In this document: piece after piece, positions 3,506 to 52,276 of the stretch
How the letters are laid out: each line of letters begins with the position of its first letter
How positions within the stretch are numbered: position 1 is the first letter of the stretch
Source: a virus
Direction: 5' to 3' (one strand)
IMG/VR virus record: IMGVR_UViG_3300044691_000429
Span: 1 to 64,000 of that record
DNA: 64,000 nucleotides
Notes under the pieces: model-generated
Told to the model about the DNA's origin: nothing
The model's database searches: none
Seen by the model: the letters and a program-made list of their open reading frames with translations, nothing else
Translations under genes and position numbers: made by a program

Positions 3506-3790
3506 ATGGTCATCAAGAAATTGCACGACATGGGCCTGCGCAGCGAGCACGCCTACCTCGCCGCGTTCGCCTCCATCGGCATGACGGTCTTCACCTGGGC
3601 CGGATCCCTCAAGGCCGATCCCAGCGCCGACCTCGCCCGCGCCGACCGGTGGGGAATTTTCGTCGGAGAGTGGGCCCCCACGTTCTTCGGCCTCGGTCTC
3701 GCGCTGTCGCAGTTCGAGCAGCAGGACGGGACGCTGGAAGAAGCCGGCGTCCCGCACATTCGCGAGGCGAAGGAGCGGGCGGCGTCCTGA
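3506..3790 (+). CDS. Small membrane protein
   Basis: GGAG RBS, GC3-rich codons, two hydrophobic segments (…ADRWGIFVGEWAPTFFGLGLAL). Confidence 0.75.
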   Translation: MVIKKLHDMGLRSEHAYLAAFASIGMTVFTWAGSLKADPSADLARADRWGIFVGEWAPTFFGLGLALSQFEQQDGTLEEAGVPHIREAKERAAS

Positions 3791-3811: not shown

Positions 3812-3838
3812 AGCCCCCGGCCGGGGGGGTCGGGGGCT
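3812..3838. terminator. GC-rich hairpin between convergent gene and CRISPR-like array
   Basis: AGCCCCCGGCC ... GGTCGGGGGCT inverted repeat. Confidence 0.6.
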
Positions 3839-4038
3839 GTCGTAACCCCGCAGGTGCGGGGAGCAGGGTCATCCACCGACAGTTAGCCGGTTCATCCCCG
3901 CATGCACGGGGAAGGGCGGTGCTGTGAATCTGGACCACTCATCGGGATCGGTCCACCTCCGCCTGCGCGGAGAGAGGTTGCGCTATGGATCTGCGCCACC
4001 AGCCAGAACCGGTACACCCCCGCGCGAGCGGGGAGTTC
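3838..4038 (-). CRISPR. Orphan degenerate type I-E-like mini-array: 4 repeats, 3 spacers (32, 32, 21 nt)
   Basis: Minus-strand 29-nt repeats GAACTCCCCGCTCGCGCGGGGGTGTACCG (4038-4010), CCTCTCTCCGCGCAGGCGGAGGTGGACCG (3977-3949), CCCTTCCCCGTGCATGCGGGGATGAACCG (3916-3888), CTGCTCCCCGCACCTGCGGGGTTACGACA (3866-3838); 61-bp period for the first three; no cas genes recognised in window. Confidence 0.85.
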
Positions 4039-4146: not shown

Positions 4147-4176
4147 TTGACGCTTCCTATTTTAGGAAGCTACGGT
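4147..4176 (+). promoter_or_regulatory. Housekeeping-type promoter with palindromic operator in the spacer
   Basis: TTGACG (4147)-N18-TACGGT (4171); GCTTCCTA-ttt-TAGGAAGC at 4152-4170. Confidence 0.8.
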
Positions 4177-4228
4177 TACGCCATCGGGTCAGGGGAACAG
4201 CCCCAGACCCCGCCGGAAGGAACCGGAC

Positions 4229-5218
4229 ATGACCAGCACCGTCCGCATCATCCCCTGCACCGAACCGGCCGGCCTGCACCGGCACTTCGGCCAGGAGGGC
4301 GAGGCCCAGCCCTGCTACATCGAACTCGACCTCCGTGCGGACACTCTCCTTGCGACCGTGGACGTCGAAGTCGGCGGCGCCGTCCCGTTCTCGACCCACT
4401 ACGGCTTCGAACGCCGCTACGGCATTCCCGTCCTCACCGCCGAGGCGGCGAACCGTGCGATGGAGGCGCTGCGGCCCTTCGCGGAGCGGATCCTCGCCGA
4501 CTGGGAGGAGCACTGGAACGGCGAAAACATGGTCGCCCGCCTCGGAGAGGACGCCAAGGCCGCCGAGAGCGCCATCTCCGACCACCTCGGCCTCGGAGAA
4601 GCTTCCTACGGCGGTGAGGGCGTCTTCGACGCGTCCGACCTGGTTGCGGAGTGGGACCTGGAAGGCGCTGTCAACGGCCTGGAGGCCGACGAGTACGACA
4701 TCATCGCCGACACCACGGACGACCGCCTCGCGGAGATCGCCTCCGAGATCACCGAGGGTCTTGCGGCGAGCGGAGAGAGCAGCGTGGCCGTCGTCCACGG
4801 CCTGGACGAGTACCTCGCGGAGATCCGCGACGGCCTTGCCGAGGCGGAGCGGATGAGTGACGCCGAGTTCCGGGTGCTGCGGGAGTCCCTCGGGCTGACC
4901 GCGGACTGGCTCGCCGGGCACCTGTCCGTCTCGAACCGCACCGTCCGCCACTGGGAGCAGGGCAAGTACCCGGTGCCCCACGGCGTCGGCAAGACCCTGC
5001 GCGACCTGGAGGAGGAGACCGCGGCCCTGGTGAAGGAGACCGCGGACGAACTGCTGGAGGACTACGCGACCGGCCCGCAGCCTGAGATCACGGTGTACCG
5101 CACGGACGAGGCGTACCTCGCCAGCGACCCGGAGCCGGTCCGGTCTGCGTCGTGGCACCGCGCGTTCGTCGCCCGCGTCGCACAGCAGGCGCCGGTGACC
5201 ATCACCTACGACGCCTGA
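4229..5218 (+). CDS. Acidic N-terminal domain fused to Aca2/YdiL (DUF1870)-like HTH repressor; candidate Acr-Aca fusion
   Basis: C-terminal MSDAEFRVLRESLGLTADWLAGHLSVSNRTVRHWEQGKYPVP...YRTD...ASWHRAFVARV from 4853; N-terminal 208 aa D/E-rich, unrecognised. Confidence 0.75.
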   Translation: MTSTVRIIPCTEPAGLHRHFGQEGEAQPCYIELDLRADTLLATVDVEVGGAVPFSTHYGFERRYGIPVLTAEAANRAMEALRPFAERILADWEEHWNGENMVARLGEDAKAAESAISDHLGLGEASYGGEGVFDASDLVAEWDLEGAVNGLEADEYDIIADTTDDRLAEIASEITEGLAASGESSVAVVHGLDEYLAEIRDGLAEAERMSDAEFRVLRESLGLTADWLAGHLSVSNRTVRHWEQGKYPVPHGVGKTLRDLEEETAALVKETADELLEDYATGPQPEITVYRTDEAYLASDPEPVRSASWHRAFVARVAQQAPVTITYDA

Positions 5219-5235
5219 TCCTGCCGACTGCAGAA

Positions 5236-5278
5236 ACGACGCCGCCCCCGTTGGATGCCCCGACGGGGGCGGCGTCGT
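5236..5278 (+). terminator. Hairpin terminator
   Basis: ACGACGCCGCCCCCGT / ACGGGGGCGGCGTCGT perfect 16-bp stem. Confidence 0.75.
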
Positions 5279-5290
5279 ACCGAGCTACGA

Positions 5291-5306
5291 TCGAACGCGT
5301 GTCCGA
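5291..5306. promoter_or_regulatory. Putative actinobacterial LexA (SOS) box
   Basis: TCGAAC-gcgt-GTCCGA, one mismatch to TCGAAC-N4-GTTCGA; overlaps TACGAT -10 and GTG start. Confidence 0.6.
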
Positions 5307-5676
5307 CCCATCCCCTCCCCCTCCCCGCGTCTCGGTCACCCTCCCCGGTGGCCGCACGGTGTCGGGCCGCCTCCTCTGCTGGCGCCAGACGGCGGACGGG
5401 ACGTGGCACCCCGAGGTGGCGCTGACTGTCCCCGCGGCGGCCGTGACCCCGGTGGACGGCGAGGACTACAGCCAGGTGCCCCGCGAGCCGGCCGAACCAC
5501 CGGCGCCCATATGGACCATCGCCCCTGTGGGCCGCGCGGACGACGGGCCCCGCGAGGTCCACGATGCGGCCCGCTGCTGGCTGGTCCGCGGCGGCCGTAC
5601 CGTCACCCTGGCCGAGGCCCGCGCCGCCATCGCCCAGGGCGTCCCGGGCTGCACCGTGTGCCGGCCGGAGCCCTGA
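5299..5676 (+). CDS. DUF6233-like protein
   Basis: VHDAARCW...EARAAIAQGVPGCTVCRPE C-terminal motif. Confidence 0.7.
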   Translation: MSDPSPPPPRVSVTLPGGRTVSGRLLCWRQTADGTWHPEVALTVPAAAVTPVDGEDYSQVPREPAEPPAPIWTIAPVGRADDGPREVHDAARCWLVRGGRTVTLAEARAAIAQGVPGCTVCRPEP

Positions 5677-6076: not shown

Positions 6077-6271
6077 TCAGCTCTCCTCGGGCGGGGTGGG
6101 GGTGGGCTCCGGGTGTGTCGTCATGAGGTCGCTCTCCGACCACTCTCCGAGGGCTTCGTCTTCGTGCCGGTCGGCTGGTTGGTGGCCGCGCGGTAGGAAG
6201 CACACCGCGTCGATGGCCTCAATGTCCGGCCAGAAGACGGTACGGGCGCCGCACGCCTCTTTCTCGGTCAT
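6077..6271 (-). CDS. Hypothetical protein
   Basis: Coupled ORF (C...C.LPRGH motif). Confidence 0.6.
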   Translation of the reverse strand: MTEKEACGARTVFWPDIEAIDAVCFLPRGHQPADRHEDEALGEWSESDLMTTHPEPTPTPPEES

Positions 6272-6502: not shown

Positions 6503-6591
6503 CGCAACAGAGTATCGCAACAGGGTTGCGCGGTCACTCCCTAGCGCGCTACTTTGAATCGCAACAAAGAAGCGATTGCATAAAGCGCAAC
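6503..6591. promoter_or_regulatory. Divergent promoter region with CGCAAC-N3-GTTGCG operator and extra CGCAAC half-sites
   Basis: Palindrome at 6516-6530; half-sites near 6503, 6560, 6586. Confidence 0.65.
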
Positions 6592-6602
6592 AGGGGGACC
6601 CG

Positions 6603-6923
6603 ATGACCCGCACCGCCCGCCGCACGATCCGCAGCATCCGCCGCAGCATCCGCGCCGCAGTCCAGGCCGGTCAGAAGCTCGTCACCGCCGTGCGCGGGGC
6701 GAGGTTCGGCGTGCTGGTCGCCCTGTTCGCCGCGATCGACCGGGGCGCCACCGTGCGGATCGGCTACGTCGACTCCAAGGGCGTCGCCTCCGTCCGCGAC
6801 ATCACCCCGCACCGCCTCGACCCCACCACCGCCGGGAACATCACCTGCCGCGCGTTCGACCACCGCGACGGCGAGGACACCACGTTCCGGGTCGACCGGA
6901 TGACCAGCCTGGGGGTCGGTTAG
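6603..6923 (+). CDS. Stand-alone WYL-domain protein
   Basis: AIDRGATVRIGYVDSKGVASVRDITPHRL...RAFDHRDGEDTTFRVDRM. Confidence 0.85.
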   Translation: MTRTARRTIRSIRRSIRAAVQAGQKLVTAVRGARFGVLVALFAAIDRGATVRIGYVDSKGVASVRDITPHRLDPTTAGNITCRAFDHRDGEDTTFRVDRMTSLGVG

Positions 6924-9209: not shown

Positions 9210-9434
9210 GTGTACCTCCACCAGTTGCGCGCCGCGATGGCCACGATCCGCGCCCGCTGGGAGCACGGGCACGACGGGCTCACCCCGGGGTGCGCGCTGT
9301 GCGCCGACGAGCAGGCCGAGGTGCGGGCGCTCATCGCCGTCGACCGGGCGCTGACGGGGCGGCACGAAACCCGCTGGCCGGCCCCGCACGGAACGTCCAC
9401 CATCAGGACCACCCACCAGAAAGGCCCGCTGTGA
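9210..9434 (+). CDS. Hypothetical protein
   Basis: GAGGAG RBS; GTGA overlap with RNA ligase. Confidence 0.55.
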   Translation: MYLHQLRAAMATIRARWEHGHDGLTPGCALCADEQAEVRALIAVDRALTGRHETRWPAPHGTSTIRTTHQKGPL

Positions 9435-10558
9435 CCCAGCTCGACAGCCTCATCCCGCCCGCAGACCTGGCCGCCGCGATCGAGGCTGGCCACGTCACCC
9501 GCAAGACCCACCCGGCGCTGCCTCTCTCGATCTACACCTACACGCGGGAGTGCCAGTACGGGCACATCTGGACGCCGGTCACGATGCGGTGCCGCGGCCT
9601 GATCTCTGACGACGTGTCCGGCGAGGTGGTGGCCCTGCCGTTCCCGAAGATTTTCGTGACCGGCATGCACGGCGTCTTCGATTTCGCGCCGCCGCTCCCG
9701 GCCGAGCCGTTCGAGATCTTCGAGAAGGCCGACGGCTCGCTGATCATCGCGTTCTACTACGACGGCCGGTGGCACGCCGCGTCCAAGGGCTCGTTCATCA
9801 GCGAGCAGGCCGTGTGGGCGCAGGAAGTCCTCGACAGCGCGGACCTGAGCGGCCTCGACACGGGCCTGACGCACCTGGCCGAGGCGATCTACCCGGCCAA
9901 CCGCATCGTCGTGGACTACGGCTCGCGCGAAGAGCTGATGCTGCTGGCCGCCTACCGGCCGGCCGACGGGACCGAAGCCCCGCTGTCCGAGGTGGCCTCC
10001 CAGTGGAAGCCGGTCGGCCCCGTCGTCCGGTCGTGGGGCCTGAGCGATGGTCTCGCCGAGCTGGAGCAGCTTGCCGTCGCGAGCACGACTCTCGCCGGCG
10101 CCACGGTCGGCGGCACCGAAGAGGAGGGCTACGTCATCCGGTACGCCTCCGGTGCCCGCGCGAAGATCAAGCTGTCCGCCTACCTGACGCTGCACAAGCT
10201 GTTCACCGGCACCAACGAGCGCACCATCTGGGAGGTGCTGGCGTCCGGTCAGGAGCCCGCCGTGCTGTTCGACCAGGTCCCGGACGAGTTCGCCGACTGG
10301 GCCCGTGGGATCGCGGCCGGCCTGCGCGAGCAGCACGACCTGCTCGTTGGCGAGGCCACCGACGCCTACGGAACCGTCATGGCGACGCTCCCCGCCGACC
10401 CCGACCGGAAGACCTTCGCGCTGGCCGCGGTGAAGTCCGAGTACCGGTCCGCCCTGTTCCTCGTCCACGACGGCCGCGACAAGGCGGTCGGCGACTGGGC
10501 GTGGAAGCAGATCAAGCCCCGCGGCGACAAGCCGTTCAAGAACGACGAGGAAGGCTGA
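9431..10558 (+). CDS. T4 Rnl1-like RNA ligase
   Basis: CRGLI, PFPKIF, motif I EKADGSL, motif IV EEGYVI, motif V KIKL. Confidence 0.92.
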   Translation: MTQLDSLIPPADLAAAIEAGHVTRKTHPALPLSIYTYTRECQYGHIWTPVTMRCRGLISDDVSGEVVALPFPKIFVTGMHGVFDFAPPLPAEPFEIFEKADGSLIIAFYYDGRWHAASKGSFISEQAVWAQEVLDSADLSGLDTGLTHLAEAIYPANRIVVDYGSREELMLLAAYRPADGTEAPLSEVASQWKPVGPVVRSWGLSDGLAELEQLAVASTTLAGATVGGTEEEGYVIRYASGARAKIKLSAYLTLHKLFTGTNERTIWEVLASGQEPAVLFDQVPDEFADWARGIAAGLREQHDLLVGEATDAYGTVMATLPADPDRKTFALAAVKSEYRSALFLVHDGRDKAVGDWAWKQIKPRGDKPFKNDEEG

Positions 10559-10559
10559 C

Positions 10560-11477
10560 ATGCCCACGATCCACGTCATGACCGGGTTGCCAGCAAGCGG
10601 CAAAACAACGGCGGCCCGCCAGATGCTCGCCGAGTCCAAGGGCCGCATCCGGCGCGTCAACCTGGACGACCTGCGGGCGATGCTCGACTACTCCGGCACC
10701 GGTGAGCGGGTGTGGTCCCACGCCCACGAGCAGACCGCGCTGGGCATCCAGGACTCTGCGGTGCGCGAGGCCATAGCGGGCGGCTTCGATGTCGTGGTCG
10801 ACAACACGCACCTGACGCCGCATATCCCGAAGCGCCTCAAGGCCGCCGCGCTCGGGCAGGCCGCATTCCAGGTGCACGACTTCACCGGCGTGCCCATCGA
10901 GGAGTGCCTGCGCCGGGATGCCGTCCGGGAGGTGTCGGTCGGCGAAGACGTGATCCGCAAGCTGCACGCCAACCACGTCAAGGCCACCCGCAACGGCTGG
11001 CGCCTCACCGATGCGTGGATGAACGACGCCCCGGCCGTCGAGCACTACGTGCCCGACGTCTCGCTGCCGTCCGCGATCATGTGCGACATCGACGGGACCC
11101 TCGCGCTCATGGGCGACCGCGGCCCGTTCGACTTCGCCCGCTGCGGCGAAGACCTCCTCAACGAGTCCGTGCGCCGGGCGCTCGTCTCGTTTCGCCTGGC
11201 GAACGACGACCGGATCGTCCTGCTGTCCGGCCGCGGCGACGACTTCCGTACCGAGACCGAGGCGTGGTTGGCCAAGCACGACGTGCCGTTCGACGAGTTG
11301 TGGATGCGCGCGACCGGCGACTCCCGCCGGGACGACATCGTGAAGGCCGAGCTGTTCAACGAGCACGTCAGGAACCGGTTCCACGTGCGGGTCAGCCTGG
11401 ACGACCGCGACAGGGTCGTGGCCCTCTGGCGGCGCATGGGGCTGCCGACGTGGCAGGTCAACTACGGAGCCTTCTAG
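10560..11477 (+). CDS. Polynucleotide 5'-kinase/3'-phosphatase (T4 PseT-like)
   Basis: GLPASGKT P-loop, DxxR, HAD DIDGTL, SGR, DDR..V..W...G...WQV. Confidence 0.93.
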   Translation: MPTIHVMTGLPASGKTTAARQMLAESKGRIRRVNLDDLRAMLDYSGTGERVWSHAHEQTALGIQDSAVREAIAGGFDVVVDNTHLTPHIPKRLKAAALGQAAFQVHDFTGVPIEECLRRDAVREVSVGEDVIRKLHANHVKATRNGWRLTDAWMNDAPAVEHYVPDVSLPSAIMCDIDGTLALMGDRGPFDFARCGEDLLNESVRRALVSFRLANDDRIVLLSGRGDDFRTETEAWLAKHDVPFDELWMRATGDSRRDDIVKAELFNEHVRNRFHVRVSLDDRDRVVALWRRMGLPTWQVNYGAF

Positions 11478-50212: not shown

Positions 50213-52276
50213 CTACCCGGCCTGAGACCGGGTCCCGGCCGGGTCCATCAGCCCTGCGGCGGCCTGTTCGACCGCCGACCGCTCCCAGCCGCGGAGCCGG
50301 CCGTTGGCCTCGGTGTCCCGGCTGGCGGTCACGCCCGGCGCGTGCTTGCGGAGAATCCGGCCAAGGCGCTCCGAATCCATCTCGCCATACCCGGAGTTGT
50401 GGAGCGCGGGCAGCAGCGTCTCGGACGTCGGCAGGAAGTCGGCGGCGCCCAACTCGAACTCCCGCAACAGGATGGCGACCAGCCGTGCATCGTCCACTCC
50501 GCCCTGTGAGGCCAGGGCGTCAAGCCGGTCGGCGATAAGGTCGCCACGCCCGGACGTCGAGAGGTTCGCCCCGGAGCCGATCAGGGTGTCGGCGTCCATG
50601 CGGGGCCGGCCCGCCTTGAGACGCTCGGGCAGGGCGGCGGTGATCTGCGGGCGGGTGTACTGGTTGAACTGGTGGCGGATGGCCCGGGTCAGCGCGCCGC
50701 CCATGATCATGGCCTGGCCCGCGTCGTTCGCAACGGGGCCAACGGCGGGCTTCATGCGGTCCGGCCGCCAGCCGAGAGCGCCAGCACCCACACCGAACGC
50801 AATCTTGACGTCCTCGAAGCGGCAGGCCATCAGTATCCGGTAGGCGACGATCGCCGCGATGGCGTCACCGAGAGCGTCGGCTGTAGCCTCCTGACCGGCC
50901 ATGATGAGGTAGATGCCGTACTGGCGGCCCGTCCGCAGGATCTTGATCGCGGCGTCCTTGCCCTTGGCACTGAGCTGGATGAACTCGTCGATGTTGATGT
51001 ACAGGTTCGGGTGCTCCGGGGTGGCGTGCCACCGGTCGCCCATCCCCAGGGTGTGCATGAGCTTGCCGCGGGCGGACACGTAGGTCAGGGCCTCGTCCAG
51101 CGCTTCCTCGCACTCCTCGGGCCCCCTCGCCCGGCGGGCCATGAGGTCGCCGAACTCGGACAGCCCGCCCTTGATCGGGTCCAGGTCCCACACGACGGCG
51201 TCCCGGCACGCGGTCAGGGCCTCGTTGATGGTGCGCAGCGCTCCGAGGCTCTTGCCCGCGCCCATCGCTCCGATGATCAGAGCGCAGAACCCATCGAGGC
51301 TGAGTTCGAGGGTGCTCCCGTCCATGGTCCGGCCCATGTGGACCACATCGTGCACGGACAGGGAGTTCGGGGGCCGCACCGCGGGCTTCGGCATGTCCGC
51401 GAACGGGTTGGACGCGACGAGCCGCACGGTGACCCTGGACTTGTCGCGACTGTCCGGCTCGGGCATGAACCCGCCGTCGGGCAGGGCGAGATGCCCCTCG
51501 ATCTGGTCGGACGCGGCCATGACCTTGCCCGGGGTGGCGCCCTTGAGTTCCAGGGCGATCTCCCAGCCCCAGCCGCGGTAGCCGAGCACGTTGATCTGCC
51601 GGGCGCCGATGCCCTCGGCCTTGAGGGCGCGCTGGATGCAGGTCCGGACCTGCTCGCCGTCCTTGCACCAGGCCAGCGGGAACGGCTCGCCGTCGTCCAC
51701 CTCGGGCTCCGGGCCGGGTCCGATCGCGGTCGCGACCGGGGCGGCCTCCAGCGCCCGCCTGATGTTGATGCGCCGCCCGTACCCGGTGACGACAGCCCCG
51801 GCGATCGCGGTCTCGGCCGCGGGCGCCGCGAGGAACGCCTCCCCGGCGGGCATGCCCACACCCAGCACGAGGCCGAGGGATGCCGCAACGGTGAGGACGA
51901 CCCCGCCCCCGGCGGTGCCCGCGGCGGTGATCCACCGGCGGTGGCGCTCCTCGCGGATCTTGTCCCAGTCCGCATTGCTGCGGGGCTCCACGGACTCGAC
52001 GCGATCGGTCGCCCGCACGTACCGCCAGCCCGCGCGGGTCGTGCCGTGCAGACCCCGCCCGAGCCACCCTCCGCCGGTGCCTGCCGCGCGGGCGGTGTGG
52101 CCGAGGCCGCGCCCGGTCGCCCTAGCAGCGACCAGCGCGGCGGACTGGGTGGTGCGCGGCGCCGGCCGGGTGGTGGGCACGTCCGGCGCCGCGGGCTTCG
52201 CGGGGACGTAATCCGGCTTGAGGAAGTCCGGCACGTCGATGTCGGCGGCCGTGCGGGAGGAGCTGTCGATGGCCAT
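50213..52276 (-). CDS. traB: FtsK/SpoIIIE-family DNA translocase, TraB-like conjugative transfer protein
   Basis: N-terminal TM pair, GAMGAGKS Walker A, YINIDEF Walker B, RTGRQYGIYLIMAGQ. Confidence 0.8.
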   Translation of the reverse strand: MAIDSSSRTAADIDVPDFLKPDYVPAKPAAPDVPTTRPAPRTTQSAALVAARATGRGLGHTARAAGTGGGWLGRGLHGTTRAGWRYVRATDRVESVEPRSNADWDKIREERHRRWITAAGTAGGGVVLTVAASLGLVLGVGMPAGEAFLAAPAAETAIAGAVVTGYGRRINIRRALEAAPVATAIGPGPEPEVDDGEPFPLAWCKDGEQVRTCIQRALKAEGIGARQINVLGYRGWGWEIALELKGATPGKVMAASDQIEGHLALPDGGFMPEPDSRDKSRVTVRLVASNPFADMPKPAVRPPNSLSVHDVVHMGRTMDGSTLELSLDGFCALIIGAMGAGKSLGALRTINEALTACRDAVVWDLDPIKGGLSEFGDLMARRARGPEECEEALDEALTYVSARGKLMHTLGMGDRWHATPEHPNLYINIDEFIQLSAKGKDAAIKILRTGRQYGIYLIMAGQEATADALGDAIAAIVAYRILMACRFEDVKIAFGVGAGALGWRPDRMKPAVGPVANDAGQAMIMGGALTRAIRHQFNQYTRPQITAALPERLKAGRPRMDADTLIGSGANLSTSGRGDLIADRLDALASQGGVDDARLVAILLREFELGAADFLPTSETLLPALHNSGYGEMDSERLGRILRKHAPGVTASRDTEANGRLRGWERSAVEQAAAGLMDPAGTRSQAG

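Follow-up and report, generated by a model that had tools for sequence, protein, structure and literature searches.

Aca2, an anti-CRISPR-associated (Aca) regulator, binds an inverted repeat overlapping its promoter together with two hairpins in the 5' untranslated region (PMC13551039). For the anti-CRISPR (Acr)–Aca fusion AcrIF24, a genetic link to Cracr arrays has been described (bioRxiv 10.1101/2024.10.29.618823). Here we describe a gene that shares features with both, found in IMG/VR virus record IMGVR_UViG_3300044691_000429. The record spans 93,141 bp with 127-bp terminal repeats and ~70% G+C, and its first 64 kb constitutes the window analysed here. The gene joins an acidic 208-residue N-terminal domain (N-domain) to an Aca2/YdiL-type helix-turn-helix (HTH) domain (C-domain), and its promoter lies ~110 nt from a CRISPR-like array. 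As a combined best explanation, we propose a self-contained, self-repressing acr-aca2-type cassette in which an anti-defence cargo and its regulator form one polypeptide, a reading that we hold to be quite possible, if still short of probable.

Fusion gene, operator and leader

The open reading frame at 4229–5218 encodes 329 residues as a single gene, in line with the initial annotation, with a third-position G+C fraction of 0.92 and the codon-position G+C pattern of a real gene. A Pfam search placed residues 209–302 in family PF08965 (Aca2_YdiL, DUF1870), with 27.3 bits against a cut-off of 23.8 and coverage of profile positions 1–93 of 118; HTH_31 was matched as well. The best PDB sequence matches of the C-domain are four Aca2 entries (E = 1e-4 to 9e-4), ahead of HigA2 antitoxins, and its matches to the HigA, MqsA and HipB families all fall far below their cut-offs, with Aca2 scoring better. 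The full-length AlphaFold2 model is confident (predicted local distance difference test (pLDDT) 95, predicted template-modelling score (pTM) 0.81). Within it, the predicted C-domain was matched by Foldseek to the Aca2 structures 7EZY and 7VJQ (template-modelling (TM) scores 0.74 and 0.70, ~121 columns, probability 1.00) and to the YdiL-like 2OX6 and 1S4K, likewise with probability 1.00, and superposes on Aca2 over the whole Aca2 length. By sequence and predicted fold, residues 209–329 belong to the Aca2/YdiL family, in agreement with a family call originally made by eye. In Streptomyces, Mycobacterium and Thermobifida phages, stand-alone C-domain homologues (44–49% identity) carry no annotation beyond that of an HTH DNA-binding protein. 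The HTH domain had been taken to begin at an internal methionine encoded at 4853. Met209 is indeed encoded there; the residue is Met in only 8 of 39 fused homologues and Leu in the rest, so an internal start as a source of free Aca2 is not a family feature and was rejected.

The annotated promoter, with its palindromic spacer, is present in full (Table 1). A generic sigma-70 scan did not call it at 4147–4176 because TACGGT matches TATAAT at 3/6 positions; the hexamer fits the actinobacterial TAnnnT form, and the layout of −35 element, palindrome and TAnnnT recurs in seven related loci. The palindrome is the only perfect AT-rich one with arms of at least 8 nt in the whole 93-kb genome, where no further copy of the operator was found within 3 mismatches. 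All four fused homologues with their own promoter (the window and loci L014, L015 and L025) carry a palindrome between a TTGnnn-like −35 and a TAnnnT −10. At this same promoter position the sequences read ACACCCTA-att-TAGGGTGT in L014 (plasmid NZ_CP108117.1), GTTACACCCT-gcttt-AGGGTGTAAC in L015 and CCCTAAtTTAGGG in L025, the last with arms CCCTAA/TTAGGG. The arms differ among the four yet stay self-complementary, with compensatory changes in both arms. Because relatives keep a palindrome at the same promoter position with compensated arms, its reading as a conserved operator, and hence autorepression, is well supported in silico. The gene's own palindromic operator, as initially proposed, is upheld by these comparisons at the level of sequence. 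Stand-alone N-domain genes (L003, L019, L020, L022 and L053–L055) show the same layout with one or two copies of another palindrome, ACTTACCCC-nn-GGGGTAAGT, followed by a leader again predicted to form two hairpins. Within the coding region (4598–4609, + strand), the half-site of the operator turns up again as ...GAAGCTTCCTA..., with the 8-nt palindrome GAAGCTTC inside it, possibly by chance.

The leader (4177–4228) is predicted to fold into two hairpins at −22.9 kcal/mol with a modest z-score of −2.07. Two hairpins are also predicted in each of seven related leaders, although the RNAalifold consensus on the MAFFT alignment of the leaders is weak. With a promoter inverted repeat and a putative two-hairpin 5' leader, the cassette matches the published Aca2 layout as far as sequence can tell. 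At the other end of the gene, the annotated terminator stem is present, with 19 pairs rather than the 16 bp first given; a generic scan called no terminator at 5236–5278 because it lacks a T-run.

Table 1 Coordinates in the window of the cassette features and of the adjoining array
Feature	Position	Strand	Basis
−35 hexamer TTGACG	4147–4152	+	read directly; TTGnnn at the same position in 7 related loci
Palindromic operator GCTTCCTA-ttt-TAGGAAGC	4152–4170		perfect 8+3+8; fills the 18-nt promoter spacer
−10 hexamer TACGGT	4171–4176	+	TAnnnT type; TAnnnT directly after the palindrome in 8/8 aligned loci
5' leader, two predicted hairpins	4186–4226	+	4186–4210; 4213–4226 with AAGGAA ribosome-binding site in the loop
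N-terminal acidic domain, residues 1–208	4229–4852	+	PF26929 by precomputed annotation (residues 1–205)
C-terminal Aca2/YdiL-type HTH and dimerisation domain (residues 209–329) and stop codon	4853–5218	+	Pfam, PDB sequence, fold
Terminator-like hairpin, 19-bp stem	5236–5278	+	5219–5295 (77 nt) folds at −49.9 kcal/mol, z = −7.43
Cas-less type I-E repeat-like mini-array	3838–4038	−	4 repeats; spacers 32, 32 and 21 nt; divergent from the gene

In the proposed mechanism, the strong promoter would fire upon entry of the element. The C-terminal Aca2-type domain would then dimerise and bind the palindrome between −35 and −10, turning transcription off; as published for Aca2, its binding may extend to the pair of leader hairpins, of which one would sequester the ribosome-binding site. 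The acidic domain would be the payload, most likely working through binding and not catalysis, for instance by mimicking a nucleic acid, and would inhibit a host defence or DNA-targeting factor, with type I-E CRISPR-Cas and restriction systems as the leading candidates. Dimerisation, binding to DNA or RNA and any activity against host defence are inferred from the features described here; an anti-defence role of the N-domain is plausible.

The acidic domain and the repeat array

The very acidic character first noted for the N-terminus is borne out by an isoelectric point (pI) of 4.19 and a net charge of −31 (whole protein, pI 4.38; stand-alone members, median pI 4.15). Its description as unrecognised does not hold: the domain belongs to a large family with the precomputed accession PF26929, most members of which stand alone under a different operator. 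At E <= 1e-3 a profile search returned 2,170 clusters, of which 1,507 remained at E <= 1e-10. Among the 100 closest proteins, ~39 are fused to an Aca2-like domain and ~60 are stand-alone proteins of ~208 residues. The link between the two parts is modular: they are fused in L101, encoded by adjacent genes in one frame with a stop codon between them in L013, and separated by a ~375-nt insert in L104. In two distant relatives the domain is instead preceded by a Phd/YefM DNA-binding domain, the only extra domain found in longer fused relatives; cluster names gave no further hint. The family is rare and patchy in the genomes sampled (6 of 401 Streptomyces and 12 of 401 Streptomycetaceae), with 50–60% identity across species.

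The AlphaFold2 model of the N-domain is confident (pLDDT 94.3, pTM 0.87). Foldseek gave no match to a solved fold in PDB (best E 0.56), a VIA-align wide search reached Z <= 5.0 over the last C-terminal helices only, and the profile found no match among PDB sequences. ESM Atlas gave no usable match either; in BFVD, the fold is common to one uncharacterised phage protein (TM 0.60). Scans of a Pfam copy that lacks PF26929 and of PHROGs, NCBIfam and PADLOC returned no family match and no toxin family for the N-domain, while 9 of 67 distant members weakly match phrog_25332 (unknown function). Across these 67 members only L16, Q27, A42, P67, N75, P83, A109, A112, D164, L196 and R200 are nearly invariant. 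Few of these are polar, and judged by sequence the set does not look like an active site, with no enzyme-, nuclease- or kinase-like signature.

The array had been described as divergent from the gene, and its repeats have minus-strand CRISPR RNA polarity, in which a CCCCGC-N4-GCGGGG stem precedes a handle ending in ACCG. They resemble the type I-E repeats of arrays on Streptomyces plasmids. The initial annotation also had array and gene form one cassette and raised the co-occurrence of homologues with repeat-like sequences. Co-localisation was found in 4 of ~45 loci (the window, L014, L062 and L003; ~550 kb searched), which is far more of such cas-less type I-E repeat mimics than expected from a chromosomal background, but most N-domain loci have no repeats and the position of the array is not conserved. 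Two repeats spaced 61 nt apart closely follow the fused gene of L014, on the opposite strand (6141–6230, equivalent to L002 9141–9230). In L062, two repeats with a ~23-nt spacer and then a terminator lie downstream of the Aca2-like gene on the same strand (1074–1147), and L003 has a solitary repeat with a terminator 2.3 kb from the stand-alone N-domain gene (~3690–3745). As the repeats of these three loci lie either past the gene or, on the other strand, ~2.3 kb upstream of it, the operator region is not shared with the array there, and is shared at most in the window, where array and gene are linked by position only.

Searches of the array spacers against phage and plasmid collections found no protospacer, with matches only to other type I-E repeats, and comparison with the flanks of 30 Streptomyces cse1 loci gave nothing better than shuffled controls. 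A 31-nt stretch 87% identical to array repeat 3 lies in unannotated DNA of lytic Streptomyces phages (e.g., OL455886.1 34714–34744), namely Piccadilly, Ignacio, Vondra, Cumberbatch, Eastland and HFrancette; with E = 0.7, it may be a solitary repeat unit or chance. Cse1 is encoded in 13 of 20 genomes carrying the N-domain, compared with 166 of 401 (41%) in the Streptomyces genus sample (one-sided binomial p = 0.029; Fisher within the genus sample p = 0.047). Many Streptomyces Cse1 matches fall in open frames of 1,500–1,800 residues (G294, G074, G271 and others; L071–L100), suggesting Cas3–Cse1 fusion genes in Streptomyces type I-E loci.

Candidate roles of the acidic domain

A cargo-effector role agrees with several traits of the N-domain, namely its modular distribution, its charge, the missing catalytic signature and its carriage on mobile elements, as well as with the CRISPR-mimic neighbours and the AcrIF24–Cracr precedent. 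That the domain is repeatedly fused, split from or adjacent to Aca2-like genes fits a cargo-plus-regulator unit. Association with an aca-type gene on a mobile element, a mark by which Acr candidates are recognised, is seen here as a fusion (split in L013) on an element with portal, capsid and tape-measure genes. The company kept by the Aca2-like gene is varied. In ~25 actinobacterial loci (L005–L012 and L027–L045), stand-alone Aca2-like genes have a different upstream gene each time; many of these upstream products have acidic C-terminal ends, with at least two recurrent families of this kind. A G+C-rich hairpin of the CCCCGG...CCGGGG type precedes the ribosome-binding site of the stand-alone Aca2-like genes by 10–25 nt and may be an intergenic RNA control element. 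A superfamily 2 (SF2) helicase of the TtrA-like type (COG4889+HA) is encoded just downstream of N-domain, fused or Aca2-like genes in L003, L016, L018, L019, L020, L022 and L034, and a 3'-phosphoadenosine-5'-phosphosulfate (PAPS) reductase lies near the gene in L002; both are listed as frequent Aca2-regulated cargo or acr-aca2 operon members (PMC13551039). The helicase, the reductase and the varied upstream genes point to the Aca2-like gene as a hub with exchangeable cargo, of which PF26929 is one that is often fused. A conserved ~190-residue protein with an excisionase/MerR-like HTH is often encoded directly upstream of N-domain, fused or Aca2-only genes (L013 4292–4942; homologues in L017, L018, L021, L024, L026, L027, L034 and L012) and weakly matches PADLOC mad1.

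Several observations weigh against a self-repressing cassette with an anti-defence payload. The N-domain has no homology or fold match to known Acr or anti-restriction proteins, an absence compatible with an Acr all the same, and it is larger (208 residues) and far better conserved than typical Acrs. Most loci with the domain have neither CRISPR-like repeats nor an Aca2 gene, and the excess of Cse1 is a weak one, with no correction for phylogeny or genome size. The z-score of the leader fold is modest, and Aca2-like regulators occur in many non-Acr contexts (PMC8434428). The pTM of the full-length model suggests rigid packing of the two domains, which would also fit a regulatory domain.

This last point leads to a different account, in which the protein as a whole serves the element as a dedicated transcription factor and the N-domain is a sensor, oligomerisation or partner-binding module for the HTH. 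Besides the fixed inter-domain arrangement suggested by the confident full-length prediction, the account draws on the repeated joining of the N-domain to DNA-binding modules, both the Aca2 HTH and Phd/YefM, and on a conservation unlike that of fast-evolving Acrs. It has difficulty explaining why most family members stand alone behind their own operator-bearing promoter with no fused or adjacent HTH; moreover, the single operator copy in the 93-kb genome leaves no visible regulon, and Aca2-like genes take many other upstream partners. We regard a dedicated transcription factor as unlikely, though worth keeping in view. The weaker HTH matches to HigA2, MqsA and HipB-type antitoxins instead raise a toxin–antitoxin-like or addiction module, with the HTH as antitoxin-type autorepressor and the N-domain as a toxin or a toxin-neutralising part that would stabilise a plasmid-like element. 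The Phd/YefM antitoxin domain fused N-terminally in some relatives and the 80–95 kb plasmids on which relatives reside agree with such a module, and type II toxin–antitoxin operons, too, typically repress themselves through a palindrome in the promoter. Nevertheless, the best HTH matches are Aca2/YdiL rather than antitoxins, PADLOC gave no match, and an antitoxin-family domain paired with a recognisable toxin was not found, as the N-domain matches no toxin family. The domain is also extremely acidic, has no nuclease- or kinase-like invariant residues and is common without an adjacent antitoxin-like gene, making an addiction module improbable.

The downstream helicases, which carry HA repeats, bear on another possibility, that the N-domain is part of a TtrA-helicase-associated transfer or end-maintenance set of Streptomyces replicons, serving DNA transfer or establishment instead of evasion of immunity. 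The ttrA gene has a subtelomeric location and a link to conjugal transfer (bioRxiv 10.1101/2024.11.13.623437), and several of the loci lie near contig or replicon ends. However, the element studied here has no TtrA-like helicase but has retained the gene along with a promoter and terminator of its own, and the same holds for the circular plasmid L002. Since the helicase itself is reported as Aca2-regulated cargo (PMC13551039), the transfer account overlaps with the hub arrangement; by itself, we judge it to have a poor chance of being right.

Among versions of the anti-defence reading, a type I-E Acr specifically is doubtful. We are equally hesitant about a further step, in which PF26929 would be a large, hitherto uncharacterised, binding-type and possibly nucleic-acid-mimic family of anti-defence proteins in phages and plasmids of actinobacteria, whose member here would inhibit type I-E Cascade or Cas3 and act with the array as a dual protein-plus-RNA cassette. 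Such a cassette would be an actinobacterial counterpart of acrIF24-cracr.

Element, neighbours and comparison with described systems

Recognisable genes of the element encode a portal protein, a major head protein, a 1,266-residue tape-measure protein, a tyrosine integrase and an FtsK/TraB-like ATPase. The closest relatives of the fusion gene are mostly on circular 80–95 kb Streptomyces replicons annotated as plasmids, and the element appears to be a temperate Streptomyces phage or phage-plasmid. The tailed-phage virion module with the ATPase and the integrase (23228–47198 and 50213–52276), together with the relatives on circular 'plasmids', points to a phage-plasmid or conjugative-phage hybrid. 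A near-complete copy of the DNA was found in a soil metagenome only, no RNA dataset was listed as carrying it, and no near-identical DNA was found among plasmids. An Rfam scan of the window returned no family.

A T4-like RNA ligase gene adjoins a polynucleotide kinase gene 4 kb from the fusion gene (9290–11477, + strand; phrog_562, E = 4e-48, and phrog_505, E = 3e-82, respectively). Such a ligase and kinase form the classic tRNA-repair pair that counters anticodon nucleases, suggesting an anti-defence region around the fusion gene. Past the terminator, 5299–5676 (+) encodes a DUF6233 protein (PF19746, E = 1.5e-8), and 6576–6923 (+) a small WYL-domain protein (PF13280; PADLOC WYL, cas-associated signalling type).

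Known inhibitors of Streptomyces defence systems are very scarce, 41% of the sampled genomes carry the type I-E marker, and these hosts are hard to engineer. The Aca2 hub offers a concrete, regulated candidate in a conserved 208-residue acidic domain of ~2,000 clusters with a confident model and no known fold. Should the N-domain prove active, it would bring a new and large family of anti-defence proteins, plus a means of improving DNA delivery into actinomycetes; should it prove inactive, Aca2-type control would serve other accessory functions too.

Among described systems, acrIF8-aca2 of Pectobacterium phage ZF40 shares the HTH-plus-dimerisation fold of Aca2/YdiL (PF08965/DUF1870; 7VJO, 7VJQ, 7B5J and 7EZY), present here by sequence and predicted fold, an inverted repeat overlapping the promoter and carriage on a mobile element; a structured 5' leader of two hairpins is also predicted here. 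In contrast to its two genes, the window encodes one polypeptide with a conserved 208-residue acidic cargo unrelated to AcrIF8 and a different operator sequence, and its host is a high-GC actinomycete. AcrIF24 combines an effector and an autorepressing HTH in one protein beside a CRISPR-repeat-mimic RNA locus, much as the fusion protein described here would. The protein of the window has no sequence or fold relation to AcrIF24, its repeats are of type I-E rather than I-F, and, unlike in AcrIF24–Cracr, its spacers matched no cas-promoter target and the array position varies among relatives.

ArdA and Ocr are acidic DNA-mimic anti-restriction proteins, and the likeness of the present protein to them is by charge only. 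Strong negative charge and carriage on mobile elements are shared, as tight early-type regulation would be, whereas the N-domain has no fold match to any solved structure; the absent match is compatible with mimicry. Also comparable are the Aca2-regulated actinobacterial operons of Feussner et al. (NAR 2026, PMC13551039), in which the same Aca2-like hub is found with TtrA-like helicases and PAPS reductase, and a DNA motif in the promoter precedes an RNA motif in the leader, to which the operator and putative leader hairpins would correspond here; the accessible text makes no mention of the PF26929 cargo or its Aca2 fusion. The control design and the idea of an effector–regulator fusion are already known, and what is new is the fusion of this widespread fold-orphan domain to Aca2.

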